DNA of 64,000 nt from NCBI GenBank assembly GCA_964187785.1, contig OZ076409.1, positions 13,952,001 through 14,016,000 on the forward strand. The letters are read 5' to 3'. How positions within the stretch are numbered: the stretch's first letter is position 1; every line of letters starts with the position of its first letter. The translations under genes and the position numbers were made by a program. Origin of the DNA: Amphiscolops sp. MND2022 (Eukaryota). The notes beneath the pieces are model-generated. The model was given only the letters and a program-made list of their open reading frames with translations, ran no database searches and had not been told where the DNA came from. This document shows, one piece after another, positions 33,108-64,000 of this stretch.

Positions 33108-36100
33108 GGGGCCCTCTAGCTTACAAATTGAAACGTAAAAAATCAAAGCCTAAACATAAAAACAACTTAAAAGAACAAAGTGTTGAGAACGAATGGATTT
33201 TTCATTTGAACATAAGGTCTATCGACTACAATTTTGAAGAACTAGAAACGCATATAGATACCTTTCGTGAAAACAAACCGTGTATTATTTGCTTGTCCGA
33301 AACATGGATGACTGAATCCTCTGACAAAAATGCCTACGCACTAGAATCCTATGCACCTATGGAATTTGATCCTGGTTCAACAAGAAATGAAGGTGTTGCA
33401 ATATATGTCCATGAATCGCTGGCATTTGAACTTTTGGAGCTTAACATACAGAAAGATTCTATTCCTGATCTAAACTATAATGGAGTCAATTGTACCGCTA
33501 GGAATAAGGAAAAATTTACCGTTGTATGCTTATACAATTCGCCTTCCGTAAATAAACATGATTTCTTGGATCAGTTTGAGTTACTTCTTGAGTCTCTTAG
33601 TCAAATTAAGAACTACTATCTAATAGGCGATATTAATATTGACCTCTTGGAATGCAACCCTGTTGCTCTGACAAAAATGCCTACGCACTAGAATCCTATG
33701 CACCTATGGAATTTGATCCTGGTTCAACAAGAAATGAAGGTGTTGCAATATATGTCCATGAATCGCTGGCATTTGAACTTTTGGAGCTTAACATACAGAA
33801 AGATTCTATTCCTGATCTAAACTATAATGGAGTCAATTGTACCGCTAGGAATAAGGAAAAATTTACCGTTGTATGCTTATACAATTCGCCTTCCGTAAAT
33901 AAACATGATTTCTTGGATCAGTTTGAGTTACTTCTTGAGTCTCCTAGTCAAATTAAGAACTACTATCTAATAGGCGATATTAATATTGACCTCTTGGAAT
34001 GCAACCCTGTTGCAGATAGGTATCTGAAATTGTTGGAAATTCATGGTTGCGCCCAAGGAATCGAAGAACCAACCCGTGTAACGCTTGACTCAGAATCGTT
34101 AATCGATCATATAATCCATAATGACTACCAAAGTCCTCTGGAATTTGGAGTTATCAAGACGTATATTACAGACCATTTTGCAACCTATGTTGATTTGAAT
34201 ATAAGTAAATCTAAATCCATTCGTTCTCAACATTTTTTTAAGGATAGACCGTTTCTCCGGGACGGTAATGCAACAAATCACTATCTAAATTACTTAAAAC
34301 ATTGCCTGGAACTTGTAGACTTAGGACAGGACATCAATGCATCTACTGAATCGTTTGCCAATGCAATATCGGAAGCAGTTAATGCTTTCACAGTTGAAAA
34401 ACAATCAGAACACCAAGATGCCGTAAGACCTTGGTTCACAAAGGAAGTAAAAAAGGCCTTAATTCGAAGAAATTGTAGTTTCCACAGATACAAGCGCTGT
34501 AAAACCTATCAGAACAAGCTACGCTACACAAGAGCTAGAAATAATGTGCACCAGCAGCTTCGTAAAAGCAAGCGCGAATACTACGATTCACGTCTGAATG
34601 GGCTTATTAATAATCCTAAATGTTTCTACAAAGAACTAAACAAAATCACTGGTAAAGCAACAAAAAATTCCAACTTTGTTATCAAGAATGATAAAAATGA
34701 ATTGATTACGGATGATATTGATGTGGCCGAATCGTTCAATGAAAAATTTGTTTCCATCAGTAAAACCTTAGCTGCTTCAATTGATAATGTCCCATCCACG
34801 ACTTATGGTATAAAAACTAATGAAAAATCACTATTTTTTTATCCAGCTGATGGCACTGAGATTTCGAGGATTATAAAAAATCTTAAGAACCATAAATCAC
34901 CTGGTCTAGATGGACTGACTGCAGAAATACTAAAAGTGAGTCACGATGTAATAGTTGAAAAATTAACTCATCTCGTGAATGAATCGCTAAAAAGTGGAAC
35001 ATTTCCTCAGGTTTAGAAAACTGCGAGAGTGGTACCGATATACAAATCCGGCAAAAAATCTATACGTGAAAATTACAGACCCATATCTGTTTTATCAGTA
35101 TTGAGCAAAATATTTGAACGTGTTGTGAATGAACGATTATATAATTTCATGGATAAAAATAAGCTATTATACCCAAGACAATTTGGATTCAGGTCAAAAC
35201 TGAGCCCCATCCACGCTCTTTCCGATATTACAGAAATGATTAGGGATAATTCTAACCTCAATATTTCTTGTATTTTGCTTGATTTACAAAAAGCCTTCGA
35301 TACAATAAACCATGAATTTCTCTTGTATAAACTCGAAGCATACGGTGTCAGAGGGGTTTGCTTGGATTGGTTCACATCATATCTAAGTAAACGAAGTCAA
35401 TGTGTTTCAATTAACGGTAAAGTCTCAAAACCATTACTTATTGACTGCGGCGTTCCTCAAGGATCTATTCTTGGCCCACTGCTCTTTATAATTTATGTAA
35501 ATGATTTCCCGAACTCGTGTAAAAACATTATTCCGTTTCTCTTTGCGGATGATGCTAATTGCGTTTACGCGAGACCCAAAAATGAAACATCTACATTACA
35601 AGATGAAGTTGAACACATTCCTGGATGGATGGCTATGAATAAACTCAGTCAAAATATTCCTAAAACTGAATTGGTCCATTTTTTAAACTGCAAAGATGAA
35701 AGCATAGTATTGAAAAATACTGAAATAACATGTACTGAATACGTTAAATATCTGGGTATCTTACTTGATAAAAATTTAACTTATGGTTTCCACGTCAAAC
35801 GAGTACTGAATAAATTAGCTAAACATGTATCCATTATTAACCGTCTAAGGCATTTCACCAGTAGTTCGGTAGAGATACGATATTATAAAACATACATGAA
35901 ACCAATTATCCAATACGGACTCTTGATATATGGGTGCACGAGGAAGAGTGTACTGAATGATATATTTCTTGTTCAGAAAAAAATCCTCCGTATTACATAT
36001 TTTAAAAACAGACGATATCCATCGGATAAATTGTTCAAAAGAAGCGAAATTATGAATGTTTTTGATCTATACGTATTTGAACTATTAAAATTCGCCGTGC

Positions 36101-36393
36101 GTTCTAGTAGAGAAAGTCAACTGCATAATATCAAGAGCGTATTTATCCACAAAAATTCACTTGTTTTTACTCGGAGTGTTTCTTCCAATATGTTTTATGT
36201 ACCTGAAGCACGAACGCAAGTTAGCCGACAATCACTAAAATATCGTGGAACTGTCTTACTGAATCATCTACTAAAAACGATGCTATTACCTCGCAATTAT
36301 GAATCTATCGGTGAAAATGAGACTAAAAGATTGATATTAAAAATTAAAAACAAAATAAGTAGCGAACGTCTGGCAGACATAGTTTTTTGTTGA
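33101..36393 (+). pseudogene. LINE ORF2: APE endonuclease and reverse transcriptase
   Basis: HLNIRS, LSETW, GDINID, SLIDH and TDH endonuclease motifs; YRPIS, QFGFR, DLQKAFD, GVPQGSILGP, FADD and KYLG RT motifs. Disrupted by a 347-bp duplication and a TAG at 35014-35016. Confidence 0.92.
33320..34013. repeat. Tandem duplication, 2 x 347 bp, inside ORF2
   Basis: 33320-33666 is nearly identical to 33667-34013 (one substitution seen); causes a frameshift. Confidence 0.9.
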
Positions 36394-36689: not shown

Positions 36690-38607
36690 AAAATTAGATC
36701 TGAAAGTTAGATCTAATTCCATTAGACACAAGCAATTAGATCAAAGGCGTACACACCTGATAAATTCTAATATCCCCAATTTGCGGGAGGGTGTTGATCG
36801 TATATAAATAGTACAAAGAGAGCATTGAGAGTTGGAAAAAGTTGAGTTAGGATTTATTGATGAGCGCTATACGATTCCTTTCAACTTCGTTGAATGTGAG
36901 ATGTAGTCGACAATGGTATTGCAGTCTTCAGGGTCAAGGAGATTCAATGAGTCAATGTCTTCAGGTCTGATGTTTTGGTATAGGCCACATGCCAGAGAGA
37001 AATGTTCTGCAGTCTCTTCTCTTTTGCCACAATGACACATCGGAGACTCCGTCTGCCAATTTTTCCAAGCGTAATTTGCTAAACCAAAAGAATTGCCTAT
37101 CAGCATTTCACAAACCTTGATGGCTTCATACCTTTGAAGGTTGAAAAGGGTCGATATAGTGTTACAAGTTAGTGGGGTTTTGGTGTAACACTTCCGAAAT
37201 GACTTGTTGTCATTATTTTTCCACGTGAGGTTCCAAGGATAGGCAATGAGAAGGTTGACATCATGCTGTTTATATCTCGTACACTTTTGAATTCTCAAAA
37301 ACTTTTCGAATCTGGTAACATGACTCTCGAGGAGGTTAGTAACACTGTCCGGAAAAGATGAAGATGCATCATGGGTCCAATGTAGTAAATTGTCTTGCAG
37401 TTTGAGCTTCAAGAAAAATTTGACGTTGATGGCTGTACTCAAAAGACCTAGAGGCGGTGTTCCTAGCAGAACTTGACATCTTGAGTCGATATTCGGCGAA
37501 TGTCCGTGTCTAAAATTTGTCCTTAAGAAATTGTTCTGTACTGCTTTGACGTATTTGAGGTTTTTCTCAAGCCACATTGGTGCTGCATAAAAAAGTGAGG
37601 GTAAGATAGTGGTTTTGTACCACAGAACTAGCGTTGGAACTGCAAGGCAAAATTAGATCTGAAAGTTAGATCTAATTCCATTAGACACAAGCAATTAGAT
37701 CAAAGGCGTACACACCTGATAAATTCTAATATTCCCAATTTGCGGGAGGGTGTTGATCGTATATAAATAGTACAAAGAGAGCATTGAGAGTTGGAAAAAG
37801 TTGAGTTAGGATTTATTGATGAGCGCTATACGATTCCTTTCAACTTCGTTGAATGTGAGATGTAGTCGACAATGGTATTGCAGTCTTCAGGGTCAAGGAG
37901 ATTCAATGAGTCAATGTCTTCAGGTCTGATGTCTTGGTATAGGCCACATGCCAGAGAGAAATGTTCTGCAGTCTCTTCACTTTTGCCACAATGACACATC
38001 GGAGACTCCGTCTGCCAATTTTTCCAAGCGTAATTTGCTAAACCAAAAGAATTGCCGATCAGCATTTCACAAACCTTGATGGCTTCATACCTTTGAAGGT
38101 TGAAAAGGGTCGATATAGTGTTACAAGTTAGTGGGGTTTTGGTGTAACACTTCCGAAATGACTTGTTGTCATTATTTTTCCACGTGAGGTTCCAAGGATA
38201 GGCAATGAGAAGGTTGACATCATGCTGTTTATATCTCGTACAATTTTGAATTCTCAAAAACTTTTCGAATCTGGTAACATGACTCTCGAGGAGGTTAGCA
38301 ACACTGGCCGGAAAAGATGAAGATGCATCATGGGTCCAATGTAGTAAATTGTCTTCCAGTTTGAGCTTCAAGAAAAATTTGACGTTGATAGCTGTACTCA
38401 GAAGACCTAGAGGCGGTGTTCCTAGCAGAACTTGACATCTTGAGTCGATATTCGGCGAATGTCCGTGTCTAAAATTTGTCCTTAAGAAATTGTTCTGTAC
38501 TGCTGTGACGTATTTGAGGTTTTTCTCAAGCCACATTGGTGCTGCATAAAAAAGTGAGGGTAAGATAGTGGTTTTGTACCACAGAACTAGCGTTGGAACT
38601 GCAAGGC
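36690..38607. repeat. Tandem duplication, 2 x 959 bp
   Basis: 36690-37648 is nearly identical to 37649-38607; it produces the twin 236-aa ORFs. Confidence 0.9.
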
Positions 38608-47549: not shown

Positions 47550-48045
47550 CAGCCAGCAACAGCAAAGCGCAGAGCCACAAAAGTTGTCCTCGAAGAGAAC
47601 ATCCAGCAGGAAGCCCAGAGAGAGGAGGGGGCCCACACGGAACACAGCCAGCAGCAGGAAGCCCAAAGAGAGAGAGAGGGGCCCACACGGAACACAGCCA
47701 GCAGCAGGAAGCCCAAAGAGAGGGAGAGTCCCACACGGAACACCACCAGCAGCAGCACCGCCCAGATCCACAGAAGTTGTCCTCCAAGAGAACAGCCAGC
47801 AGGAAGGCCAGAGAGAGAAAGGGTCCACACGGAACACAGCTAGCAGCAGGAAGCCCAAAGAGAGGGAGAGTCCACAAGGAACACCACCAGCAGCAGGAAG
47901 CCGAAAGAAAGAAAGTGTCCCACACGGAACACCACCAGCAGCAGCACCGCCCAGATCCACAGAAGTTGTCCTCCAAGAGAACAGCCAGCAGGAAGGCCAG
48001 AGAGAGAAAGGGTCCACACGGAACACAGCTGGCAGAAACGCAGCC
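47550..48045. repeat. Purine-rich minisatellite with higher-order repeat
   Basis: Recurrent CCACACGGAACAC...CAGCAGGAAG...GAGAG units of ~50 bp; a longer block is repeated at a 189-bp offset (47741 and 47930). Confidence 0.85.
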
Positions 48046-49978
48046 CAGGAATAAAAAGGTCAACAAAGAAGTTGAGGTTTGGGGCAAGGCACAGAATTGG
48101 CAGTTGTGCGTATAAGTCTCATAATCTGTTAGAATCAGAAGCTAGGATATCGCTTTAGATAAAAAGTGATTTGTGATTGAAGATTGAATTTGACTTGGTT
48201 ACTCTTGCTTGGTTGCAAATTAAATGATAGAGAGTTAAAGAAAGAGCTCCAGATGAGGCATAATGTTCCAAGGTTGGAATTGATGTTGATGGTTCAAGAT
48301 CTGCACAGTTGTTGTCATGAACATTACGGTGTGCTTTGTCACCATGTTCACTATTAAGAGTAGTTTTAGCTTTCGCGTTGTACTGAACTTCGGAATAACT
48401 TTCCGGTCTCTCATCAGATCTCTCCCATCCCCTTCTAGTCTCCTGTCCTGAACCGGCCATAATAACGTTTTGAATCTGGGGTAAAACCTGATTATGGATG
48501 GCGTCACTTATGGCTCTCTGAATCTGGGAACTAACACTGTTCATCGTCTCATCCATCTCTCTGGATATTCTAGAGTTCAATTCACTAGATAACTTATTGA
48601 TCTCGGCTTGAGAATCTATACTTGCTGAATTTTGGTCATAACCGGCACTAGTTCCGACTCCAAGATTTCTATGATCGGAATGGAGACTCATTTCTCCATT
48701 TTCCAAGTTATTACTTGTAATACTTTCCTGCCTTCTTATGGAAGTTCCATCGAGACTTCCGTCTCTTCCCGTATCTTTGAAGTGATTTTCCCCTAACATT
48801 ATGTCAAGGTTTTCAATGTCAGAGAGGATTTCTAATCCTCTAGATTTCCTTGCTTTCTTTTGTTTTCTTGTAGTAGGCATTGAGACTAAACCGGGTCGAA
48901 TACTTGAATTATCAATTCCGGAAAATAAACAGTGAAACCGTTTGTATTTTTGAACGTCTTTATCAAATGAAGGAAAGTACAAAGTATGAGCCTTCCTGCA
49001 GGGGTATGGGTATTTATACCTCTGAAAGGATGACACACACATTTTTGACATACTTTGACCAAGACAAATCATAAGATTTTACAATCATCATAGGGAAATC
49101 CCCGACAATTACATATTTCCGGGGGACATTTAAGGAATGGTATTCAGAGTCATCATTTTAAGTAGCAACTTCAAACAATCTATCGGTTAGACCTACTTCA
49201 AGTGTGATGTAAACAAATACCACAACTTGCATATTTCATAGTGATGTGAAATGAAGGCACGTGCCGGCACAAGTTTACTACAAATCAAGCTGAAAATGGA
49301 ATGTACTACTATGTGTGGAATTCCATTACTGCATCGATATTCACGAAAATACACTCACATATCAGAGCCGGAATAGGCCTAAATCCATAACATGTACTGC
49401 ACATTTGAAGGACATGGTAAAAGGCCTCAACCGTCCCTTTATTCAAGTTGAAAATATACCGACATCAAAACACCACAAACGTATTTATTTGGACTAAAAT
49501 CATGATTCTAATAGCTCCGCGTAAGTATTGATTCAATTAGGCAACGAAGGTATTATTATGCTTGAATTGGCCGAAACCGTCCATTTGACTGAGGGACTGA
49601 TATAAATTAGCACCGCTTAGTCAATAGGCCTTATCCGGCCATCATAAATAAAGCACTCATAATTAGCAAAAGGAAAGCTCTGATTGGCTAATAACCGTAC
49701 TGAAAGTTACATCGCCGAGAAGGAACATTTTCTCACTTGAACACGTTTCCTTCTCGCGATTAACCTGCTTATTGTACGTTACCGCTTTGATCAAATTTCA
49801 ATACTCTATTTGTAATACAGCAAAACTTCTTTTACAAATCTCAAACTACAACCTGATTTGGATAGTTCCAAATCGTAATTTTAACAGACTAATATCACGA
49901 ACAATCATATAAAAAGCACTTGATTAAACAAAAATGAATGTGATTAACAAATAAATATAGGTTTCAGCAAGGGAAAGT

Positions 49979-50764
49979 TTAAAACGTGGGTAGGGTACCT
50001 GGGACGATTTCTTGATTTTCCGCTGACGTCGTTATTAATATACCGTCACAGGCGGCAGCCTGCGACACTGCGAGTGTTATGAAGAGGAATGCTCCGGCGT
50101 TGAGGCCGTTCTCATATGCTTCCCTTCTGATTCTCGTGATGTACTCAGGCTCTCCTCGCGGTTTGGACCTCGCAACATACCATTCTACCTTCTCTTTCTT
50201 TATTGCTTCTGAGGATCTGCCACACACCATACAGCCAGAATACAGTTTATTGCTCACGTTCTCGTACGGCCTTGTGTTCTGCACATGGAACGACGCGTGG
50301 AAATCACCCACGATAGGCTGCATCAGGGGGGTGTCCAAACTTGGCCCTCTCTCATGGTCAGGCGGTGACATAGGTGACTCTGGCACTGGTAATAGAGTCT
50401 TGCAAATCTCTATTCTTGACTTTCCCAATTTCTTTGGGGGAGCATAGCACATCTCTTGGTCAAAATACTTGTGATTCAGCTTTGGGGTCACCTCAATCTG
50501 CACCTGGCCTGAACTGGGTCCAGCTACTGGTTCTTCCTCTGTGGGTTCGTCTACTGTCATTATACGGCCCCCAATCAGCATAGGGCTAGAGGTGACTTCT
50601 CTCTCAACCCTTGCCACGAGCTGCTCCGTGTCAGGAGAGTAATTTGTCTCCCAGTCTGAAGATTCTTCCTCACTGCTGGAAATGTATATTACCGATCTTT
50701 CGGAGTCCTCTGAGTCGTATTCTTCCAGATCGAACAATTTCCTAGCTAAGTTGTATTTGCTCAT
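49979..50764 (-). CDS. Unknown 261-aa acidic protein with a CxxC motif, in the inferred LTR
   Basis: ATG-initiated intact ORF; acidic N-terminus and CMVCGR motif. Confidence 0.6.
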   Translation of the reverse strand: MSKYNLARKLFDLEEYDSEDSERSVIYISSSEEESSDWETNYSPDTEQLVARVEREVTSSPMLIGGRIMTVDEPTEEEPVAGPSSGQVQIEVTPKLNHKYFDQEMCYAPPKKLGKSRIEICKTLLPVPESPMSPPDHERGPSLDTPLMQPIVGDFHASFHVQNTRPYENVSNKLYSGCMVCGRSSEAIKKEKVEWYVARSKPRGEPEYITRIRREAYENGLNAGAFLFITLAVSQAAACDGILITTSAENQEIVPGTLPTF

Positions 50765-51098
50765 GATAACCTTTTTTGCTATTTTTGAAGCTGTTCGAAG
50801 TAACTGGGTTGAAGTGAAGTTTGTAGTAGAATGAATTTATCAGTTTTAAGAATTTAGCCGAATCAAGCCTTTTCCCGAACTTTCCAATCCGGCGGGAGAA
50901 CCTTAGGTTAATTGTCCCAATCCGTCGTAAACTTTTCTGAATGGAATTCTTACACTGGTTGGCAGCCGCTGTTAATTGATGTTTACCCCCATCTAAGTTG
51001 TCATCAAAGAGGGTGTAAACCGCACTCGAGTTGTTGATATCAAATATTTCTTTCTCGAGCAGGTAATTAACGGCTTGCCTGAGAGCAATTAACGGCAC
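50742..51098 (-). CDS. Unknown basic ORF overlapping the 261-aa ORF
   Basis: 118-aa ORF with a non-ATG start in the track; possibly a spliced exon or a fragment. Confidence 0.35.
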   Translation of the reverse strand: MPLIALRQAVNYLLEKEIFDINNSSAVYTLFDDNLDGGKHQLTAAANQCKNSIQKSLRRIGTINLRFSRRIGKFGKRLDSAKFLKLINSFYYKLHFNPVTSNSFKNSKKGYHEQIQLS

Positions 51099-51655
51099 GC
51101 GACTCGAAATACTTCCAAAATGGCTTCAGCCAATCAGAATTAGGCTTTGATAATTTGCAAAATTGAATAATAAAAATGGCAAAAATAATAAATTCAAATA
51201 GTCCACGATGGCGAAAATTCTAGCTAAAGGGTAACTAAGGCAACTGAACGAAACGGCAAAACAAAACAGGGCAAACGGCCATAACCGGCCTCTAACTAAA
51301 TAAGTTGTAAATAACAAAGTTCTTTGTACATTTCGCTGGCAGACTCCATGTACAGAATAAATATGTAAATAATCGAATAATGTTAGTCTGGTAATTTCTT
51401 CAGCCACGAACTCCAATTTCTAATTCATTACATTTGTATTCCAATCCAATTCCAATATCAATTATCTCGCTTTTGCCTTGTTCATTCACACTCTCCCGGC
51501 TGACATCTATTTATTCACATTCATAATACCCTCATTGCCGTCTCCCTCCAGGGTATCCTTATCCTCCTTCATTTTCGACCGTGAGCGGCCATCATCCACA
51601 ACTCCAATCAGTCAGCTCAAAACAACTCTCTTTGGAGCAACAACACTGGAGAGAC

Positions 51656-54600
51656 ATGTCTTCAAACACAGGTTGGTCTGGTTTTCATATATTGAACTAG
51701 TTTAGCTTGATCAGGGCTAAATTTGTTCACAATAAGCTTCCTGTTTCCACTAACAAGCGCGTGACAGCACATTTTGTTCAAATTTTCAAGTACTTCCGGA
51801 AGGTTTCTTATGCGGTAGAATGGATTCTTTTCGAGGAAGCATACCGCCAAACGTTATCTCTTTTTGTTTAGAGAATCAATTAACTGAAGTTGTCAATGCA
51901 CCAGCCAAACCTGCTGCCACTACTTCAGCAGCTAGTCCACCAACCGAAACTGGACAACAAGTCCAGAATCCAAGTGTGCCCCAAGAGTTGTCTCGAAGCC
52001 GGGCAGATGACATCACCTCTACTCACAGCGCCTACAGTGACCCAGATGTAACATCATATGCTGAGTCCATGCTCCAACGAATGCAGCAGACACAACTTAT
52101 CGCTACACACGAAGAGAACCATCCTACGTCTGTCCCGCTGCAGAGCCAAGAACAGGTCAATGACCCTTCAGGATTGGTATTAACGACTGCCGAGAACCGA
52201 AGGTCGAGTACACCCATCCAGTCTGATGAGGAGGAGGTCCAAGAAGCTGACTTGTCAGCTTTGGAGTTTGCCCTGAGGGTCATCGAGGCCTCTGAGTCCC
52301 AATTGCCTGAATTGAGAAACGAGACTGCTTCAGACCAAGTGGACGCAAGTGGTGTCCAATCCAGTACTGACGAAGATTATGCCTCGTCAATTTGTGATGT
52401 ACCCGCTCTCCCGGGAGGTGACCCCAAAGTACGGTTCGCTGAGGGGTTGGATGAAGCAGAAGAGTCTACTGGAGAGTCAAGTCGACTGGTCCCGGTAGAG
52501 TTGTACGGACGTCCCCTTTTCGGTCTTGAGTCCGTAACTGAATGTGAGGGGGATACCAGTTCCGAAGGGCAGCCTTTGGAGACAGGGAAAACATGGACGG
52601 CTTGCGGGAGTTCAAACCAAGACAAACTCCCAGATCTCTCAGGTCGCAGTAGAGCCATCCTGAAAGAGTACTTCGAGGAGGCTTCCCCTATTAGACTTCC
52701 CGTTGGGCATACTACCGTAGCCTTCACAGAGCCCCAGGTTTATCACCTCCTGCGTACCCTCACGGATAAGACCCTCCGCAAATCCTTCAGTACTATGGAA
52801 AGAATGGTACTTGATGCTGTCCGAGGTACCCCGACCGCTCTCCCTTCACGTACCTTTCACTTCCAACTAAAGAGGAGAGCACAGACCCCCGGACCTGGGT
52901 GCCAAAGTGATTCTGAAACGGAGAGTGACCCACAAGGAACAGCCTCAGATCAGCTTGGGTCGAGCAGTGACGGCACTGGTGATGCTTCCTTCTATGAAGA
53001 GACTGATAGTGCCACTGAGATGGACTTGATAACGAAGTCCTTCAAGCAGACCCCTCCGCAACCTCTAGTCAGAGAGGTTCAAACGGACACGCCAGGTAAC
53101 CAGCAGCAAACAGGACTTGAAGTAGAAGGACCCAGCAGTCAGGATACTACCTTACATGAGATGCGTGAGCAGGCTCAGAGGGACCTAGGAGAGGGACATT
53201 CCAAGTTGAAGAAGAAAAAGGGCAACAAAAAACTTTCCAGGAGAGGAGTGCCCATGAGGGAAGAATTCTTCTGTAAAATAGGGTGGACGAGGTCGTTCAT
53301 TTCCTGGCCGGCAGATCCTCTGCATAATCCACATATGGTCTGGTGCCATATTTGCAAGAAGAACTTTTCTATAAAATCAAAGGGGCCCTACGAGATCTTG
53401 AGACATCATCGGACAGACCGCCATTTGAGACGTGATCAAAGGTGGCGTTACGAACACTTGCGTAGTGTCGACCCCGTTAGTGGCAAAGTGCAACATCGAG
53501 TCAGAGGTGCCAACGGCAAAATCTTGACAAAAATCGAACTGGCCAATCAACTACCCAAATTCATCAATGCTGAATTAGTGGACATCGGGGAGAGATTCCC
53601 CTTTTACGAGGATTTCATTCGAGGGACTACTACAGCCTTGGTCACACAGGAAGCAAGGGTCAAGACCCAACTTTGCCTGGTGGGGGATTTCATAAAGACC
53701 CTGGGTGACTTGTCTGTCCTGAGGAACCTGTGGGCTAGAATGGGAGCTTTCACCAACCACCAAGCTACTGTATGTGATTTTGACTGGGGCGAAGAACGTA
53801 TAAGTGTAAGTATATTTTCGGTGACCTGTCCACTAAGCCGTGTATTTCCTTCCTAGGAGTTTTGTTTCTCTTACAGGCAATCTTTCAACATTTCTTCATG
53901 AATGCCCTGAGCGACGTCGCTGAGCACGTCGCCGCCGAACAATGCTTCGCCATTGAATTCGAGGCTGCTGGAATTTACCGCTATATGACAGTCAAATTTT
54001 GAAAGGGTCACGAGCTTTGCCGGGTCTTCATTTGCAGAAGTTCTCTTCCTGCAACTGACATAACAGGTGAACTAGGCTCCCTGGCTCGATTCTTGTCGGC
54101 GGTTTCAACCCAACTAGACGTAGTGGCATGCTCCGGATGTCACGTTGACTTTGCCAAGACGATCGATCAGTCAGATTACTTCCCGCAAGGGGTTCAAAGT
54201 TGTTTCCGCTTTGAGCAGTTATCATTACCCACCTTGATGCACAAGTCCAAATATTCTGTCTTTGGTCAAATAGACTTCTTCTCCGTGCTCCAGGCCCTGA
54301 TGGTGTCCCTAGGTGGTTCACTTACTGAAGAATGCGCATAGCGGAGTCCAGAGCTCACTAAAATAAGTACTTCATTTTGCCTTTCCTTTGGTGGTCGGGG
54401 GTCGGTTAACTTAGGTACGGTAGGGAACAATTCCCAATAGCAAGATTGGTTTTAACAGGCGGTGACCAATTGCAAGCTTGACATCCAGACGCTCCCGGTC
54501 CTCTGTACGGAATTGGCCAAGGAGTGGAAATCCATACTTCGCTATTTGACAGAGCATGCCCCTATACAAGGAGGTCAAGGAGTCCGCAGCAGGGTTAGGT

Positions 54601-56025
54601 TTGATTTCATTCCTTTCTATGGTATAACCAAATAGTCCCACAGAGAGGTTCTTGGCTTCCCCTTGTTTACCGGGCGTTTGGCGAAAGCTGACGTATGTAT
54701 CTTGTTTAAGGTACAGAGCTTCGAGTGGTCCCTGATCTGTGACGAATTTTTCGTCGTCAAGTTGGAGTTCTTCAACAGGCTCGTGAGCGACTGTAAGTAG
54801 TCTACCTTTAGGGTAGTTGTTTTGGGATCTACTCTACTTTAGGCTTTGATTTGTGTTTCCAGACGTGGCTAGCTTCCCGGTGAATCTTCAGCACAGACGT
54901 GATTCCTCTTTCTATTTATGTGGGGAAGTCTGCCAATTCCTAAGCCTACTTTGTTCTCGTGCCTACACACCCAACACGGTCCCTCTTGCGAAAGCCTGGT
55001 TCCTGTTGTTACGATTCCAGACCAATGAGGCTACCTTCCTGGATGGGGAAGAGTATTTGGTTCGTCTGAGGCTCTCTCACAAGGTGTCAGCAGCCAGCAA
55101 AGCAAAAGCAGAAGGGATGCATTTTGGCAAAAAATCGGAGCGCCCAGCGATCCTGGCAACTACAGAGACTGTAAAGTCCGATTTCGTTAAGGATAGTCAG
55201 CAATATATCCAGTATCTGGTCAATGAGGTTCTTCGGCAGACTGGGCTAACTACCAACATCGTGAAGGGAATGGCCGCCTTCGACCCTTTTATTTTGTTTA
55301 AGCGGCCTATGGATGTAGCTCTGCGGCACTTCGACATCCTGTACAGTACTTTCTCCCTTCGCTCTTGGGTATCTAATGCCAACGAGTCCTTGTGTCGGGA
55401 TCAGTATATGCAGCTACTTGACCACCTGCGTACAGCCTATGACCCAAGTTTCGACATATCTAGTGTCTCTGCTGATCTAATTGAATTCCTGTCCGAGCTG
55501 GAATTTCTTCGTAATCGTAGCTACTTATTCTATTTGTTCAAATTGTGTTGCTTGTGTGCTACGTCTGTTAGTCCCACGTATCCTGATGTCACTTTCGGGA
55601 CAATTTCCACTGCTGGACGTCATAGCAGATTGACAGACGTCATTCTTCCCAGCCAAAGTTATGTAGCTAACGTGCGTGACGCAGTTGCTTCCTGTAGTGA
55701 TGACGGGAATCTGGCCAAGTTCATCGACTTCTCTTCTTCTTTCGGGCGCTCTGCATTTGCTCCCGATTATGATCCCTGGACGTACGTGGACAATTTCGGG
55801 CGTTCGAAGATTTATAAGTTGTTGTTGGCTTCCTACCGGACAGCTCTTTCGACCCCTCAAAAATCTCTGGTCCGGAGAGCGCCAGAAGATCAATGTTCCG
55901 TAGCTGATATGTCTGCTGTGAAAGCCCCTACTAGCACTAAGCGAAAGAAAATGGAACGTCGCGCTTCTCGCGCCTCCTCGTCATCCACTGCTGGAGCCAG
56001 TGAGCCTGGTTCGTCTAAAGACTAA
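51656..56025 (+). pseudogene. Antisense spliced gene: BED-finger, hAT-transposase-like protein (predicted exons 51656-51671, 51872-53805, 53877-54362, 54459-54593, 54711-54792, 54863-56025)
   Basis: Phase-compatible GT-AG introns join the 678-aa, 82-aa and 390-aa ORFs; WCHICKKNF...LRHHRTDRH finger. This copy has stops at 54000 and 54339 and an ATAAGT (mutated) donor at 54363. Confidence 0.72.
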
Positions 56026-56268
56026 CTGTACATATGTATGTATGTACATTGGACTGTAAACTTTGTTGATCTTTTGTTATTCTATTCATTTATTCTTTTG
56101 TTGTTTGTATCTTTGATTCCCTGATCCCATATTTGTCTTCTTTGTAAGGGATCACCTTTAAGTCCCATTATTTATTCAAAAAATACTGACTCTCATGGGA
56201 CTAAAAAAAGATAAAAGAAAAGGAAAATCCAATTCAGGGCTCATCTCCTGAACTGAATTCAGTCTTTC

Positions 56269-59200
56269 TTAGTATCTGAAGTCGTCTGAGTAGTTTGGGT
56301 TAGGGTTAGGTCTGAGATTATATTTCCCTCCTCTGGGGCTCAGACTTTCATTTCTAGCATCGTTTTCAGATACTTCGGGCACGATAATATCATCCCCCTT
56401 GTTTGGAGAATCTTGTGTATCGTTTTCATTCGTCAAGTTTCTTTCTGAAAAATTTTCATTGTTTTCCGGTCTATCTGCCGTATTTGGCAATGATTTTTCT
56501 TGGTTTTTTGGGGAAACGGCCGGATTCGGCCAATCAGATTCTTCATTTTTGGTGACTGCAGTAGATTCATTTCTTTCAGTGACGTCATCATTTAAGTGGT
56601 CATTCCGGCTGTGCGCTGCGTTGTCGTTGTTCGTTACTTCTCGCGTGATTATGTAATCTGCTTCATTCTCGGCTACGTCATTTGTATTCGTTTCTGCTGC
56701 ATTCGGCCGTTCGCCATTCGGCATGCTGGTCGGAATAGTCTCGTTGCCTCGTGTAACTAGCTGCTCGCCAAAGTCGGTTTCCCACGTTATGACGTATAAA
56801 TCATCTTGCGGAATGACAAGTTTTTCGTCTGGCTGCAACTGTTGTTCTCGGAAATTATCCTCAAGCGGTTGATTGGGGACAAACTTCTTAAGGCGAATCC
56901 GATGCAGAATTTGAGTTTTGTTCGTGTTGATCCGTCGTACTATATAGTTTTCATTTGGCAAAACTTTTTGGACTACAAATGGTCCAACCCAACGAAAATC
57001 GCGGAATGGAATTTTTGATCCTTGATTATCCGCTTTCGGCTGTAAGACAAAACAGTATTCGTTCTCCTTTAGTGGAGCGGCTTTTGCTTTACGGTCATAA
57101 TATTCTTTGTACTTGATATACGACTGCATAATCTTCTGCTTGGTTTTGTCAATCGGGATTTTTGTCCGGTTTTGGATTTTTTCAGCAAATTTGGTTGTGG
57201 GGTTGATCTGCTCGTTTGGATTATTTCCAAGCTTGTGATCCAAGATATTAAATGGAATTCTTCCGTGAAATACTCTTCGGCTCACAACCGATGCTGGCGT
57301 GATAACTAGTATTATGATTCAGTACTGCTAATGGCAAGTATTTGTGCCATTGTCGGCGATATTCCCCACATGCCATTTTGAGATTTGTTTTCAATGAGGC
57401 ATGAGTTCGCTCCAATTTCCCAATTGTCTGCGGGTGTTTTGTCGTTGCATATTTGAGTGTGATGCCCAAAATCTGCGTAACCTCCGCAATAATTGTAGAA
57501 TAAATGCAGTACCTTTATCAGTGATAAGAGTCGTTGGTAGATATGAGTGTTTAGTCATGATGTCAATGAGCGCTTTTGCTACATTGATTGCTGATGCGTC
57601 CGTAAGGGGATAGGCGAACAGATATCTGGAAAATACATCAATTGCTGTTAAGATGTTTTCATACCCACCACTTGGGGGAAGATTCGACAATAGGTCAATT
57701 TGCATGGCGTCTTCAGGTCCAAGGTCCCATTCGGGTAAGTTGAGTAGTTCAGGTGTAATTGTTGCGTTGGGGCCTTTTTTGTCTCTGGCACATTGTTCGC
57801 ACCCTTCTACCCACTTTTTGACGTGCTTAGCCATGCTAGGGTAGTAATACCTCTGTCGAATTTCCTGCAGCATTTGTGAAATCCCAGGATGTTTCTGCGC
57901 TGTCCCGTGGAGAGATTGGAGCAATTCCTGGAGTAAATGTTGCGGGAGCAAAATTTGATGGTATTTAACATTCCCTGTTTCATCAAAATATTGCCTTGCC
58001 AGGATTTCGTCCTTTAGTACAATTCGTTCCAGATTGTTTACGTAATGTCTATATCGGGCATCCTGGTGCAGTAGATTTTCTGAATACTCTTCATGAAGCA
58101 GTTTTGCTTTGAATTGTTGTAGTACTGCATCTTTGGATTGCTCGATAATGATTTGGTTGTTTTCCTCAGTCGGTCTTGTATATCGGGGTGTTGCTTGACC
58201 AGATTTGTTGACAGAGTTTGTATAGTAACAGTGGGCTCATCAGATGCTGGATTTTTCCTGATTGCTTCTTTTCTTGCCCAATACTGTTCTTCTGTCTCAT
58301 CGTCGTCATTGGTGTAGAAGATTTGTTCTTCTTGTGACACCCCTGCGGATTGGACGTTGGTAGTGTTTGTACATCTTCACGAATTTTCATCACCAATTTG
58401 TCCTTCGGATCTGCTTCCCATCGGGACAAATAGTCGGCAGCTATATTTTGTGCCCCTGGGATGTGTGCTACGACAAAATTGAACTGGATGACACAATCAC
58501 ACGCGTTCCACAGGGCTGGGGGTATTATTTTTGTTTGAAAAAATCTCGTGACAGCTTTGTTGTCCGTAAGGATGATGACCGGTTTCGGCGCACCCCAGAA
58601 GTTATGTCCGAATTCTTTGAATGCAAAATAAATTGCAAGGAATTCCTTGGCATAAATTGACATCTTGTTTTGTGCTGGGGTGAAAGTTTTTGATCCATAT
58701 GCGACCGGTGCATACGATTTTCTGAGTGATGTAAATTTTTGGCTTGGGTCGTCTTCACTTAGGACCGCGTACCCGGCTGCACCAAAACTTGCATCAGTCA
58801 TTAGTGCTATTTGCTTGTTCGGAATTGGTTGCTGTGGGCCAGGTCGCAACATTTGTCTAGTGCTCTATTGATTTTTTCGAATTGTTGGACTAATTCTTTC
58901 GATACTAGGACCTTTTCGTCACTTTTGAGCATCTTGTAGAATGGAGCAAGGCGTTCGGAGAGTCTTGGGACATAATTCCTGTAGTAGTTTAGGAATCCCA
59001 AATAGCGCTGTAAAGCCTTTTTCGACTTCGGGAATTTGGACTCTTCCAGAAAGTTTTGCACGTTTTGTTTCTGGGGTTTGACGCATTGTGGGGTAATAGT
59101 CCGTCCGAGAAAATCAATTTCTTTTGCACCGAAGTGACATTTGTGCATTGTTAACTTAAGGCCTGCTTCCTGAATGCATTTGAACGTAGCTCTCAGGTTC

Positions 59201-61464
59201 GTCATGAGGTGGTCAGCATCATTGGCTGCGATGCCGATATCGTCCACATACTGGGCACACTGGTCCGCTTTAATGACCTTGTCGAGGTATTCCCTCATGA
59301 AACTCGAGAATGCGGATAGTGACCGACTAAGGCCTTGTGACAAACGTCTGTAGGCGAACGTGCGACTGGCAAAATTGAAAGCCAACATTTCGATTGAACG
59401 TTGGTCGGCCATTGGTAGGCAGTGGTATGCCTGCGAACAGTCTAGTTTACAGAACAGTTTTTTGCCTGCCAAGTGTTGCGCAGCATCAACTAGTGTACTG
59501 ACGGGGTGATTATTGTTCCTATAATCATCCGAGATGAGGTTGTTGATTTTTCTCAAGTCAACCAAGAGTCGGAGTTTCCCATTCGGTTTCTTTTGTGCAA
59601 ATATTGGACTCGCATATTTCGAAAATGGCAGTGTAGTTATTATGCCATATTTGTGTAACATGGCTAATTCAACTAGGATGTCCTCCTTCAATTTGATAGG
59701 AGCTGGAAGGTTTTGACTATAGGCTGGGGAATCGTCCTTAGGTATCAGTTTCACCTTGAATTCCTCCTTCATGCCTTTATCAAATCGGTGTCGTGCAAGG
59801 ATGTCATAGAATTCCACTAACAATTCCTCAATTTTCTCCTTCTCTTCAGGAGTAAGGGTGGAATCTTTCCAGTCAAAGTTTTCTAAGAATTTTGCACGCG
59901 ATTCCTCATCTTTGGTGGGGTCAAGTGTCTCCAGGTCCTGTAAGGCCTGTAATTCTCGAAGGATTCGTTTTTGTATAGGTGTGTGTTCCTCAGGATTTCC
60001 AGGATTTTCTGGAGTCGGAAACCAATAATTTTCGGAATTTTGTGGATTTCTATTGGTCTTGATGAGACTGCTGACATAGTGGGCTGCCTGCTCCTGGTCA
60101 TTCTGCAAAAGGTGCCAGGTTGATGCCGGATCTACCGGTTTGACATACTTCAACTGTTCTGGCGTCATGACAGAGAAATTGGCAATATGAAGTCCTTTTT
60201 TGAGTTTATAAGGGTGGTCTTGGTCTGTGAAATTGTTCACTGGTATCAATATATTGCCATAAGTCAGAGTGACCAAAGCTGGGCAAAATGTGATGTCGCC
60301 TTCTTCATGTAGAAGGTCGCTCGGTTGCAAAATTCCAGTGACAGCATTCTCAGGGTAGAGTAGGGAATTGGTCCTAATTAGGACTTTATCATTTGGTGGA
60401 ATAGTTATCTCAATAGGGTTGAGAATTAGTTCTAACACATTTGAATACTTATGGTCAGCCGTTTTGAGCAGCATCGAAAAGAACGGGAAATTCAGTATCC
60501 CTTGTCGCATGTCCAGAACTGTATGGTTTCTTTGAAGGAACATTAGTCCAATGATCGGACCTGTCAGATGTTCCATCATTATAAAAATCTCGTGAAACTC
60601 GATGTCACCAACTTCAAATTTGAGCTCTATTGTACTCTTAGGAGTTTCCAATTGCCCATTAGCGACCATTATTTGGAAATTCGGAGGCGGACCTTCTCGG
60701 ATAACGGATTGTGGAGATAAAAGTCGAATTTTCCGGAGGTCCATTTCAGGAATTGCACTGGACAGCGCTCCAGTGTCAATGAGTCCGTCAATGGTCAATT
60801 CCCCAAAGTCCATCGGGAAATACAACATGCGTTTTTTGCATTTCAGGTTGATGTTGGTTGACAGGGGTATACAGTCTGGTTCACCGTCTCTAGTGATTAA
60901 GACATTTTGGAACTGTTTCTCGTCTAGCAATGATTGTGGTGTGGGTTCAACCTTGCTGTCATGGGTCTCGGTCCCCAAAGGGTTTGGGAACACTGGATGG
61001 TTTGTGCCATCATTCATTTGCCAGTTTTCAATTAATGCTCTGGTCTTCTAATTGTGGGTGATTGGAGGGTTCTCGTGGACTGTCCGATTGTAGTGTTCAA
61101 TATCATCTAGAACGTATTGAAATTGTAATAGCTCTTGATTATAGATCTCGGTGTCCCAATAAGGATCTCTGCCGTAGTCTTGATCGATATACGTTGGATT
61201 GTAGTTATCGACTAGGGGAATGGGCCTGAACCGGGTAGTGAAGGTGGTGGTATAGTCAGGGTCCCAAACAGGAATTGGTTTTTGGAATAAATGGGTGTTG
61301 TTATAGGTGATGGTGATAGCTTCGTCCATCTGTTGCTGCCAGACAACAGAGGGATAGCCCATCAATTGTTGTGTATACTGATGAAAGGTTTTTGTTGGAG
61401 GATCCGACCTGATGTATTGGCGGACGGATATCAGTTCGTTGTATTGGAGTCGTGGCGAAGTTAG
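56269..61464 (-). pseudogene. pol: Gypsy pol: protease, RT, RNase H and integrase, frameshifted
   Basis: IDTGA; LRLLVDLRKIN, KLDCSQAY, YVDD; TDAS, KEFLA, TDNKA, AADYLSR; HHCC (H..H..CEQC), IDVFSRY, TDKG, ERTH. Confidence 0.95.
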
Positions 61465-63155
61465 TTTTTTGACTCATCATTAGAGGATGAGGATTGTGAG
61501 TTTGAAGATGTTGGTCTATTTTGCGGTTTCTGGGTCTTTGGAGTGGGCTTACCGTCATTGGCATCATCTGGTCTGGTGCGTTTGGGTTTGAGATGCGCAC
61601 CAGCACCTTGCCAGCATCTTTCTTCCGGGTGGTTCTTTTTACCACAAGTGCAACACTCCGGATACGTTTTCTTCTGTGTTTGTTTGCCTTGCTGGGCATC
61701 TTTTTCTTTTTTCTCTTTGATTTTTTCGCAGTCCTTGACCATATGGCCCTTTTCCTTGCAATAATTGCAAGTAATGTCTGACATTTGCCCAGTGGACAGA
61801 AGAGTTTTAGATTTTGTAGTTGAGGAGGTCATTGTGGCTATTGGTAGGTCATCTGATTCCTCAAGAGCGTCGACTTCCAACTCTCTCTCCAAATGAGCAA
61901 CAATTTCATCATATGAGGCATTTTCTAATCTGGCCATGTTGACGGACCGCTTCAATTTAGGTGGCAGCTTTGCGTAAAGCAAGCTGTCAATCATTTTCTG
62001 TGCATGGTCACCAAACGCCTTCTCGGCTCCCTGGTTTAATTCTTTGAGAAAGTCAGGCAGCTTCATCGTATTGGGATCGAAGACCAGACGGTGCCATTTA
62101 TGTTTGGCAGTCGCCTGTGACTCGGGCTTGACGTATTTTTGTCTAAAGATGACTAATACGTCCTCTAGAGTTTGTCGGTTGCTTGAGCTGATATTTCTGA
62201 ATGTCTGAAGAGCATTCTTCCTCAATAAAGAGTGGAAGTGATTGATCTTCATTTGCTCAGTCATTTCTGGCTGCATCTTGATCATATTGTGAAATAGGTC
62301 TTCGAACAGCTCGAATTTCTCACTTTTGTCATCGAATGTCATGGTATTTGAGTTGACTGGGCGTATGGTGAGTTGTTGGGCTGTCGGTCTACTCTGCATT
62401 GTGGTCAAGACGTCTGCCAGCCGAGTGATGGGGTCGGAGTCAGCAGCCGTAGCGATTCTCTCTTGTGCTGGGATCGTCGTGTCGAGGTTGATGTCCTCAA
62501 AGGACCTGTCGAGAAGATTTCTGGATGAGATTCGTCCTGCGAGAAACTCAGGAACTTGATTTGGAGATTCGTTGTCTCCTGTCACCATGTCATGAACATT
62601 ACGGTGTGCTTTGTCACCATGTTCACTATTAAGAGTAGTTTTAGCTTTCGCGTTGTACTGAACTTCGGAATAACTTTCCGGTCTCTCATCAGATCTCTCC
62701 CATCCCCTTCTAGTCTCCTGTCCTGAACCGGCCATAATAACGTTTTGAATCTGGGGTAAAACCTGATTATGGATGGCGTCACTTATGGCTCTCTGAATCT
62801 GGGAACTAACACTGTTCATCATCTCATCCATCTCTCTGGATATTCTAGAGTTCAATTCACTAGATAACTTATTGATCTCGGCTTGAGAATCTATACTTGC
62901 TGAATTTTGGTCATAACCGGCACTAGTTCCGACTCCAAGATTTCTATGATCGGAATGGAGACTCATTTCTCCATTTTCCAAGTTATTACTTGTAATACTT
63001 TCCTGCCTTCTTATGGAAGTTCCATCGAGACTTCCGTCTCTTACCGTATCATTGAAGTGATTTTCCCCTAACATTATGTCAAGGTTTTCAATGTCAGAGA
63101 GGATTTCTAATCCTCTAGATTTCCTTGCTTTCTTTTGTTTTCTTGTAGTAGGCAT
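61461..63155 (-). CDS. gag: Gag of element 2 (likely start MPTTRK at 63155)
   Basis: Intact ORF with a retrotransposon gag core and two knuckles (CNYCKEKGHMVKDC, CCTCGKKNHPEERC). Confidence 0.9.
   Translation of the reverse strand: MPTTRKQKKARKSRGLEILSDIENLDIMLGENHFNDTVRDGSLDGTSIRRQESITSNNLENGEMSLHSDHRNLGVGTSAGYDQNSASIDSQAEINKLSSELNSRISREMDEMMNSVSSQIQRAISDAIHNQVLPQIQNVIMAGSGQETRRGWERSDERPESYSEVQYNAKAKTTLNSEHGDKAHRNVHDMVTGDNESPNQVPEFLAGRISSRNLLDRSFEDINLDTTIPAQERIATAADSDPITRLADVLTTMQSRPTAQQLTIRPVNSNTMTFDDKSEKFELFEDLFHNMIKMQPEMTEQMKINHFHSLLRKNALQTFRNISSSNRQTLEDVLVIFRQKYVKPESQATAKHKWHRLVFDPNTMKLPDFLKELNQGAEKAFGDHAQKMIDSLLYAKLPPKLKRSVNMARLENASYDEIVAHLERELEVDALEESDDLPIATMTSSTTKSKTLLSTGQMSDITCNYCKEKGHMVKDCEKIKEKKEKDAQQGKQTQKKTYPECCTCGKKNHPEERCWQGAGAHLKPKRTRPDDANDGKPTPKTQKPQNRPTSSNSQSSSSNDESKN
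61464..61470 (-). promoter_or_regulatory. -1 ribosomal frameshift heptamer A AAA AAC
   Basis: Lies immediately before the gag TAA; the -1 frame is the pol frame. Confidence 0.75.
62570..62587 (-). promoter_or_regulatory. Primer binding site of element 2
   Basis: TGGTGACAGGAGACAACG directly follows the LTR end ...CATGACA. Isotype (Leu-like) is uncertain. Confidence 0.8.
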
Positions 63156-64000
63156 TGAGACTAAACCGGGTCGAATACTTGAATTATCAATTCCGGAAAA
63201 TAAACAGTGAAACCGTTTGTATTTATGAACGTCTTTATCAAATGAAGGAAAGTACAAAGTATGAGCCTTCCTGCAGGGGTATGGGTATTTATACCTCTGA
63301 AAGGATGACACACACATTTTTGACATACTTTGACCAAGACAAATCATAAGATTTTACAATCATCATAGGGAAATCCCCGACAATTACATATTTCCGGGGG
63401 ACATTTAAGGAATGGTATTCAGAGTCATCATTTTAAGTAGCAACTTCAAACAATCTATCGATTAGACCTACTTCAAGTGTGATGTAAACAAATACCACAA
63501 CTTGCATATTTCATAGTGATGTGAAATGAAGGCACGTGCCGGCACAAGTTTACTACAAATCAAGCTGAAAATGGAATGTACTACTATGTGTGGAATTCCA
63601 TTACTGCATCGATATTCACGAAAATACACTCACATATCAGAACCGGAATAGGCCTAAATCCATAACATGTACTGCACATTTGAAGGACATGGTAAAAGGC
63701 CTCAACCGTCCCTTTATTCAAGTTGAAAATATACCGACATCAAAACACCACAAACGTATTTATTTGGACTAAAATCATGATTCTAATAGCTCCGCGTAAG
63801 TATTGATTCAATTAGGCAACGAAGGTATTATTATGCTTGAATTGGCCGAAACCGTCCATTTGACTGAGGGACTGATATAAATTAGCACCGCTTAGTCAAT
63901 AGGCCTTATCCGGCCATCATAAATAAAGCACTCATAATTAGCAAAAGGAAAGCTCTGATTGGCTAATAACCGTACTGAAAGTTACATCGCCGAGAAGGGA
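62588..64000 (-). repeat. 5' LTR of element 2 (partial)
   Basis: About 7 substitutions versus 48313-49725 by eye. Confidence 0.9.

Follow-up and report, generated by a model that had tools for sequence, protein, structure and literature searches.

Gag coding sequence inside the long terminal repeats of a Ty3/Gypsy-type element from Amphiscolops sp., and a conserved gene that likely lies in U3

The gag gene of a retrotransposon in a 64,000-nt stretch of contig OZ076409.1 from Amphiscolops sp. MND2022 (the window, in whose coordinates all positions are given) begins within the long terminal repeat (LTR) and reads across both the LTR end and a PBS-like TGG. The same element carries ORF261, a real, conserved, multi-copy gene that represents a new, unnamed protein family. 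The LTR likely starts at 51490 and is then 3,178 bp long, which would place ORF261 wholly within U3. As to the overall architecture, the copy is quite probably a young but damaged member of an abundant Ty3/Gypsy-type family, lying on the minus strand and about 17.5 kb long with 3,178-bp LTRs.

The LTR-borne start of gag and the family placement

48308..48312, no strand: left flank GTTGT, candidate target-site duplication, its partner lying beyond the window
48313..51490, minus strand: 3′ LTR, 3,178 bp if its start is 51490, repetition shown only over 48313-49725
48314..48880, minus strand: copy of the first 189 gag codons in the LTR, frame continuing into the flank
56269..61470, minus strand: pol (PR-RT-RNase H-integrase), disrupted in this copy by a stop (61048) and four or more frame changes
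61461..63155, minus strand: gag, 564 aa, start 568 bases inside the 5′ LTR
61464-61470, minus strand: A-AAA-AAC
62570..62587, minus strand: PBS-like TGG stretch directly past the LTR end, in the gag frame
62588..64000, minus strand: 5′ LTR, cut off by the window edge

Repeats 48313-49725 and 62588-64000 form a gap-free alignment of 1413 bp, with 1406/1413 positions identical and one of the 7 mismatches at the second-last comparable base (49724/63999). This bears out the earlier note's statement that LTR identity reaches the window edge, and the GTTGT that it placed on the left flank was likewise found. The 3′ end of the LTR is CA and is followed at once by TGG, an assignment of the PBS that is by position only; no tRNA genes were found in the 64-kb window. 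For the truncated-gag cluster 15 members were listed; the copy in the window and 10 of the others extend as far as ..VHD. Sequences diverge directly after ..VHD in 11/11 of these (10/10 of the other copies), and the next residue is in all 11 compatible with a codon starting with A, as GACA predicts. Annotation pipelines set an upper limit on LTR length or expect the PBS upstream of gag, and LTRs of retrotransposons count as non-coding. The gag start within the LTR, which the earlier note had overlooked, is the best-supported oddity of the element.

Like Ty3/Gypsy elements, this one has RNase H before integrase in pol (PR-RT-RH-INT), and Pfam matched the zinc-binding and C-terminal domains of integrase and the zinc knuckle of gag. 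Unlike typical members, it holds 189 gag codons in the LTR, probably a whole U3 gene, and an antisense spliced gene. The A-AAA-AAC near the end of gag is presumably a slippery-type motif. The best PDB match of the RT was foamy virus PR-RT (2e-28), with Ty3 RT among the best; membership of the Odin group or the retroviruses, which that top match suggested, was rejected on the single RNase H region, which lies between RT and integrase. A dual RNase H domain is the criterion given for those groups in the cited account (PMC9040795). No family match to env was obtained in the element, and Rfam gave 0 matches in 48000-56500. Scans of viral contigs and genome contigs returned no related loci, and a metagenome contig scan returned one short related locus, L001, out of 116 candidate stretches. 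We take Ulysses, Osvaldo and Woot as possible long-LTR relatives, as a lead. None of the titles and abstracts listed in literature searches described such an element, and earlier cataloguing, for example in Repbase, Dfam, GyDB or TE-library supplements, is possible.

The far end of the LTR

49013..49018, minus strand: TATAAA, found nowhere else on this strand of the LTR, of inferred function
49438..49489, minus strand: two AATAAA signals, after which none follows on this strand up to the LTR end, likely serving for polyadenylation in R
49681..49687, minus strand: CCAAT box, candidate genomic-RNA promoter element
49690..49790, minus strand: strong hairpin spanning the point where the proven repeat stops, as well as the two rival LTR ends (49727, 49743)
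50742..51098, minus strand: 118-codon open frame without ATG, judged non-coding (ORF261 leader or promoter)
51130..51136, plus strand: CCAAT box, 372 nt upstream of the ORF261 start
51228..51419, minus strand: non-coding but conserved block, immediately within the proposed end of U3
51491..51497, minus strand: candidate polypurine tract GGGAGAG, abutting TG, only 7 nt, judged by a shuffle test of terminus plus tract
51604..51610, plus strand: CCAAT box upstream of the antisense gene

The terminus named in the earlier note, TGTTCATTCACA followed by CTCTCCC at 51490, is present and is the best terminal-inverted-repeat match among 442 CA sites in 49726-56300. Taken by itself the inverted repeat is at chance level (168/200 shuffles); together with an abutting run of at least 7 pyrimidines it recurred in 6/200 shuffles, with thresholds set after the fact. 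51490 is also the best candidate place, rival sites being present, for the polypurine tract that abuts the TG start of the 3′ LTR in Ty3/Gypsy elements.

Two ORF261 copies, P0001 and P0128, are 98.8% identical and lie on contigs of equal size, taken as the same contig, as would two LTRs of one element; they are the closest of the 28 pairs in their cluster, and a gag protein (P0508) is on a contig of equal size. Chance pairs on equal-sized contigs numbered 6/30,628. This is the only near-identical same-contig pair among 248 ORF261 proteins, the young clusters to which P0070 and P0275 belong hold none, and the pair could also stem from a tandem or segmental duplicate. Summed over the best 120 clusters each, ORF261 had 1800 members and the internal antisense exon 1775, so that a twofold excess of ORF261 is absent from a comparison blurred by fragments and collapsed identical copies. 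The minus-strand frame that enters the LTR start from outside has 36 codons, too short for a protein search, and a neighbouring 97-codon frame was used instead. It matched 27 proteins, 0 of which joined foreign flank at 51490; the two that cross 51490 both continue, by eye, into internal-type sequence.

These results have to be set against an LTR of only about 1.4-1.7 kb, ending at 49727, at 49743 or elsewhere below 49980, in which ORF261 would be a lone accessory gene of the internal region, located between the antisense gene and the 3′ LTR and sharing a bidirectional promoter there, and gag would still start in the LTR. We regard this as the less probable reading, though one of some weight. 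It would account for the near 1:1 member counts, the scarcity of same-contig ORF261 pairs and the internal look of both proteins crossing 51490; CA followed by pyrimidine-rich DNA occurs at 49727 and (by eye) 49743, and the window holds another repeat pair of that shorter size. Against it, the match of 49727 to the other terminus is poor (score -1.5 vs 6.5), 49743 is outside the best 15 of the 442 CA sites, and both lie within the 49690-49790 hairpin (z -4.28, 0/200 shuffles, an overlapping window ranking second of 72), of which the purine run at 49743 is an arm. The 98.8% identical pair would need a different cause, and the better terminus at 51490 would be due to chance. Coding gag, unusual for an LTR, might also be taken to mean that the repeat is no LTR at all, and reflects a tandem or segmental duplication of the whole element or an assembly duplication. 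This is very improbable: the repeat ends in CA exactly before TGG, its copies differ at 7 sites, and the break of 10 other copies at the same codon into different flanks largely refutes it. The 3,178-bp LTR starting at 51490 is thus kept as the likely reading.

Of the two overlapping sense ORFs that the earlier note had put in U3, 49979-50764 is a conserved gene whose U3 position is likely, and 50742-51098 was rejected as a gene, having no ATG, being a singleton and showing no conservation of frame; we judge it a spurious frame over conserved non-coding DNA. In the conserved block 51228-51419 frames shift among copies, RNA structure is no better than in shuffles (z 0.17), and 10-mer complements within the element are only scattered. 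The gap between the divergent genes had been given as about 560 bp; their conserved start codons, at 50764 and 51820, are ~1,055 bp apart. The CCAAT boxes noted at 51130 and 51604 do exist and are not unique, others being at 50571, 53543 and, on the minus strand, 49687; by simple arithmetic, five CCAAT[CT]A in 8 kb is not above chance expectation. The box at 51130 has a counterpart of identical motif and orientation 347 nt upstream (counted by eye) in L001, a distant relative. From gene orientation and the conserved non-coding DNA, a bidirectional promoter between ORF261 and the antisense gene is plausible.

ORF261 and the antisense gene

49979..50764, minus strand: ORF261, with RxLF, SIM-like VIYISS-acidic stretch, S/T-P sites, CxxC, helical hairpin and conserved C-terminal motif
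51820..56025, plus strand: antisense gene, probably spliced, with a 662-codon first exon carrying a BED-like C2H2 finger, and later exons

ORF261 proved to be acidic with a CxxC, as first described, and encodes 261 aa. Its family comprises 175 clusters (the best 120 at 51-95% identity) with 371 representatives, and 13 distant relatives at 26-35% identity. CxxCG is present in 129/142 near and 13/13 distant relatives, and the SIM pattern in 125/142 near and 6/13 distant proteins (shuffle means 3.9 and 0.2), relatives not being independent in either count; the strict SIM is missing from 7/13 distant relatives. SIMs are defined, in an account that also covers their use by viruses (PMC12751080), by a four-residue hydrophobic core with an acidic or Ser flank, and the ORF261 sequence contains such a stretch. 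R/K-x-LF occurs within the first 30 residues of 124/142 near relatives (shuffle mean 0.4) and in 0/13 distant ones. Pfam returned 0 families, the best PDB profile match had an E of 1, and atlas scores were only 0.76 and 0.75. The predicted structure has a pLDDT of 50 at full length and of 66 over the C-terminal 161 aa, where it is confident for two helices only; fold comparison with this model, reliable only for the helical hairpin, gave 0 Foldseek matches at E<=0.001 and, in a separate search, a best Z of 4.8.

The antisense gene is likewise a conserved multi-copy gene. It has a predicted intron at 53806-53876 and, in this copy, in-frame stops at 54000 and 54339. It had been called hAT-like; its conservation stands, and the hAT label is a lead only, drawn from atlas hits of its finger to zf-BED, zf-C2H2_12 and FAM200-ZBED5 at 0.84-0.85, with Pfam zf-BED matching 0/33 family members. 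Three later exon pieces, each searched alone, gave 0 Pfam families, the finger did not match the transposase-like frame 30052-30747 (E 9.7), and the gene has no match to Transposase_28 (PF04195), which marks the Retand antisense ORFs.

Judged from its motifs, ORF261 may be a nuclear regulator whose N-terminal motif binds SUMO and which thereby either activates the element or blunts SUMO-dependent silencing, a proposal we hold tentatively, at somewhat below even chances. RxLF-type motifs serve in cyclin docking, and their presence in 124/142 near relatives, together with six S/T-P sites that could be CDK targets, would suit a cell-cycle-coupled effector timing the element to S phase or the germ line. 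This is improbable, since the motif is missing in 13/13 distant relatives and therefore cyclin docking cannot be the family's core function. Slightly less improbable, though still doubtful, is a role in the export or handling of unspliced genomic RNA, perhaps via the 49690-49790 hairpin, as a nuclear factor that contains cysteines and is controlled by phosphorylation. Conserved S/T-P sites and Cys/His residues in ORF261 point that way, as do the spliced gene and strong hairpin of the element, and there is a precedent in the Ty3/Gypsy element Cer1 of C. elegans, whose accessory protein CERV is described as nuclear and as having both a cysteine loop and an S-P phosphosite (PMC10309623). However, CERV has 517 aa and comes from a spliced gene in the 3′ internal region of Cer1, whose LTRs measure 491 bp, and the main text of that paper does not mention SUMO; ORF261 is acidic rather than basic, and the searches linked neither its sequence nor its modelled fold to a solved structure or a Pfam family. 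SUMO binding is retained as the working proposal.

Known systems and a possible mechanism

Ty1 of yeast is a Copia-type element whose short LTRs hold only the very start of gag, whereas 568 bases of gag lie in the LTR here. Accessory ORFs in or overlapping U3 are found in MMTV (sag) and in lentiviruses (nef). In Ty1 the PBS is described as lying within the GAG ORF (PMC4974528), and the PBS-like TGG is also inside the gag frame here. Foamy viruses have tas, bel-2 and an internal promoter, according to the cited account (PMC7828637). The suggested resemblance of ORF261 to nef, sag and bel appears to be one of position only, with no sequence or fold match from Pfam, the PDB profile search or Foldseek, the last with a model reliable only for the helical hairpin. 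Plant Ogre elements of the Tat group are reported with LTRs of 1.9-6.5 kb and one or two extra ORFs (PMC6431247), Retand with antisense ORFs between pol and the 3′ LTR that carry Transposase_28, and Grande with its own antisense promoter (PMC7264820, PMC11963269); as described there, the extra ORFs of Ogre and Retand are internal, unlike the likely position of ORF261, and the Transposase_28 domain has no counterpart here.

A promoter at the end of U3 (CCAAT at 51130, block 51228-51419) would drive ORF261, whose transcript would end at the AATAAA at 49443/49489. Genomic RNA would start further down, probably near 49600, since there is no poly(A) signal below 49438; Gag-Pol would arise by -1 frameshifting, and minus-strand strong-stop DNA would be ~1.3 kb. 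The U3 end faces the antisense gene at the 3′ LTR only, and therefore a bidirectional promoter is possible only there. The antisense finger protein is a candidate DNA-binding partner of ORF261.

SUMO has been linked to the silencing of retrotransposons, and we know of few proteins that counter it. On the most speculative reading, which we think rather unlikely as a whole, this Ty3/Gypsy lineage, a widespread one, has made its LTR a gene cassette: each LTR, solo ones included, would hold all that is needed (promoter, ORF, poly(A) signal) to express a counter-silencing protein of a new family that binds SUMO, the 189 gag codons would yield Gag-N fusion peptides by reading into flanking sequence, and dispersed copies in the thousands could maintain the family's activity in trans, with the antisense finger protein, derived from hAT, as partner for targeting. 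If a whole gene does lie in U3, a solo LTR could itself code for protein, strong-stop DNA is longer than usual, and each LTR may act as a self-contained regulatory cassette. The ORF261 family, with its SIM-like motif, offers a possible way into the question of how retrotransposons of animal type might act against SUMO-linked silencing.

A gag gene that begins inside the LTR

The retroelement lies on the minus strand, from 48313 to past 64000 at the window edge, and its main features are listed in window coordinates.

48313-49725, minus strand: left copy of the proven repeat
49979-50764, minus strand: ORF261 (261 aa)
51490: proposed start of the LTR
51820 onwards, plus strand: antisense gene
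63155 to 61461, minus strand: gag (564 aa)
62588-64000, minus strand: right copy of the proven repeat

The repeat copies align without gaps and with 7 mismatches in 1413 bases, bearing out the earlier note's claim that LTR identity runs to the window edge. Both start TGTCATGAACA on the plus strand, which gives a ...CATGACA end in element sense, and the right copy is immediately succeeded by TGG. A Pfam search identified reverse transcriptase (RT), RNase H, plus the zinc-binding and core domains of integrase, arranged as in Ty3/Gypsy, with a protease match also in order but below the Pfam cut-off. Read by eye, pol of the window copy is interrupted by a stop at 61048 as well as at least four frame changes. 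These breaks (56269-61050) are far more numerous than 0.5% LTR divergence suggests, and assembly errors or copying from an already damaged master are possible sources. Gag-Pol would be produced by a -1 frameshift ahead of the gag stop, at the slippery-type motif A-AAA-AAC. The pol-frame stretch between the frameshift site and protease (61048-61461) comprises 137 codons without a Pfam family.

Gag starts 568 bases within the LTR, with 189 codons inside it and the PBS-like TGG as part of its frame. The proven repeat is partly coding, a point overlooked in the earlier note. Since gag starts inside the LTR, the 3′ LTR holds a truncated gag running into the flank. This form falls in a cluster of 64 members, and tails were compared for the 15 listed. 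The LTR-end codon is reached by 11 of the 15 (the window's own and ten others), the other four ending earlier; all 11 diverge there, each with a different tail. Past the LTR end every tail opens with N, T, S, K or I, each possible from a codon starting with A, as the GACA end requires. Judged from these sequences, divergence at one codon in 11 of 11 copies places the LTR 3′ end across independent insertions. Simple duplication as the origin of the repeat is excluded by the same divergence.

In seven of these 11 (truncated gag copies among P0510-P0524; window flank 48308-48312) the tail opens with N or K; the first flank base is therefore frequently A, which hints at a target-site preference. 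The initial 8 bases of the PBS-like stretch are repeated 32 bases upstream, within the LTR (62612-62619 and 48337-48344). The strongest fold among 72 windows of an LTR scan (48963-49062; z -3.7, 25 shuffles per window) sits a short way upstream of the gag start and spans the TATAAA.

ORF261, a conserved and probably LTR-borne gene

Two sense ORFs had been proposed within the LTR, and the one at 49979-50764 is, by its conservation, a gene. Of 561 candidates, 175 clusters proved related to ORF261; identity is 51-95% for the best 120, lengths of 256-262 aa are common, and 371 representatives matched at E≤0.001. Thirteen aligned distant relatives are 26-35% identical; several of them come from short contigs, and one belongs to the JGI locus L001. 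No named record was found among the matches listed, there was no Pfam family or PDB sequence match, and an atlas comparison gave nothing above 0.76. Structure models were confident solely for a helical hairpin after CxxC, and a fold search with them found no match. CxxCG is present in 129 of 142 near and 13 of 13 distant relatives, R/K-x-LF in 124 of 142 near but 0 of 13 distant, and a hydrophobic-then-acidic motif fitting a SUMO-interacting motif (as defined in the available part of PMC12751080) in 125 of the 142 near proteins and 6 of the 13 distant ones (where shuffles average 3.9 and 0.2), all being counts of related sequences rather than independent events. We tentatively favor a nuclear SUMO-binding regulator that may activate the element or counter silencing. 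Ranked below this are an RNA export factor resembling CERV of C. elegans Cer1 (precedent in sections of PMC10309623), which is unlikely, and a cyclin-coupled timing effector, which is improbable.

The second frame, 50742-51098, is not a gene: it lacks an ATG, its cluster has one member versus 41 for ORF261, and relatives use all three reading frames across it. It was rejected as a second LTR gene, and its pattern of conservation is that of non-coding DNA. One gene, probably LTR-borne, thus stands in place of the two proposed, alongside the firmly shown gag overlap; the feature first described is real and partly reinterpreted.

Start of the LTR and proposed transcription

An LTR of 3,178 bp starting at 51490 is probable, and one of only 1.4-1.7 kb rather unlikely. 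Against the ~3.2-kb LTR of the earlier note, the expected copy excess is missing: summed over the best 120 clusters in each case, members numbered 1800 for ORF261 versus 1775 for the antisense exon of the internal region, not 2:1. Position 51490 is the top inverted-repeat partner of the LTR terminus among 442 CA sites; this match alone is at chance level (168 of 200 shuffles), and in combination with the adjoining run of 7 pyrimidines it was reached in 6 of 200, with thresholds chosen post hoc. The shorter LTR could start at 49727 or 49743, CA sites also followed by pyrimidines, and a mismatch at the second-last comparable base of the proven repeat counts against 51490. The purine run at 49743, however, is one arm of a hairpin (49690-49790; z -4.28, 0 of 200 shuffles) whose opposite arm falls largely within the proven repeat.

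Same-contig pairs were sought among 248 ORF261 proteins from contigs of recorded size. Eight of 30,628 pairs were on equal-sized contigs, six being 32-65% identical and one representing two pieces of a single gene. The eighth, P0001/P0128, is 98.8% identical and the closest of the 28 pairs its cluster contains (4 differences against a median of 19), and a gag piece also lies on a contig of that size, as expected for two LTRs of one element, but this is a single case among the 248. On the side of the shorter LTR, foreign flank at 51490 was seen by eye in none of 27 proteins matching the nearby block, and the two crossing 51490 seem to enter internal-type DNA.

For the preferred 3,178-bp LTR, an ORF261 mRNA would extend from the U3 end down to AATAAA at 49489/49443. 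No later signal of this kind occurs on the minus strand, so R probably includes these two and genomic RNA would start near 49600, below a CCAAT box at 49687; alternatively, it would start near the TATAAA at 49018. With the start near 49600, U5 would be ~1.1 kb and strong-stop DNA ~1.3 kb. ORF261 would be carried by every LTR, and the antisense gene faced by the 3′ LTR only.

Antisense gene, known systems and neighboring features

For the ORF that opens at 51820 on the plus strand, related clusters number at least 200; its start codon is invariant in 33 aligned members, its conservation stops at a predicted donor (53806), and it contains a C2H2 finger. It had been called hAT-like; the gene is conserved, but the hAT link is only a lead, from atlas clusters at 0.84-0.85 (zf-BED, SPIN-DOC-like and FAM200/ZBED5), and Pfam and PDB searches gave nothing convincing. 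In-frame stops interrupt the window copy at 54000 and 54339. The gene and ORF261 do face apart, with 1,055 bp between conserved starts rather than the ~560 bp proposed. Between them, block 51228-51419 is kept in many copies although frames shift, and no RNA structure was found in it. The CCAAT boxes reported are present at 51130 and 51604, without enrichment (5 in 8 kb). Upstream of the distant relative in L001 there are again short collinear motifs, together with a CCAAT box (partly by eye). A promoter between the two starts is likely, and its firing both ways is plausible. Elsewhere, frames at 28205-30747 are reminiscent of a DNA transposase with a finger-like motif; they gave no Pfam family and did not match the antisense gene.

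Gag overlaps the LTR to a far smaller extent in Ty1 than in the window element, and sag and nef are retroviral accessory genes of U3. The PBS lies within GAG in Ty1 (PMC4974528, in part), as here. With its probable U3 accessory gene, the LTR would work like that of a complex retrovirus (foamy virus accessory genes, PMC7828637, in part), although homology was not found. Dual RNase H, a criterion for Odin and retroviruses in the available text of PMC9040795, was absent from the window element, despite foamy RT being the top match in a PDB comparison of its RT. Plant Ogre LTRs are reported in part of PMC6431247 to reach 1.9-6.5 kb, so LTR size by itself is not new, and Retand offers a parallel in its antisense transposase-like ORFs (excerpts of PMC7264820 and PMC11963269). 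For LTR-borne ORFs, the accessible part of PMC13524379 held nothing under the queried terms. A literature search of partial coverage, outside repeat databases, listed no account of a Ty3/Gypsy element that combines a whole U3 gene with a long gag stretch in its LTR.

A second, older direct-repeat pair (11855-13283 and 22330-24154; 89-94% identity) flanks frames on the minus strand that have a zinc knuckle and a protease match (15207-17816), and its right repeat includes a 180-codon open frame (22902-23444) without a Pfam family; this may be a further LTR element whose long LTRs are partly open. Frames for a LINE-like endonuclease and RT occupy 33092-36393, a stretch with a 347-bp tandem duplication (33319-34013; 99.7%). 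A head-to-tail duplication of 959 bp (36690-38607; 98.9% identity) has a 261-262-codon frame per copy, and a tandem array of ten 47-50-bp units (47581-48062) ends ~250 bases left of the element.
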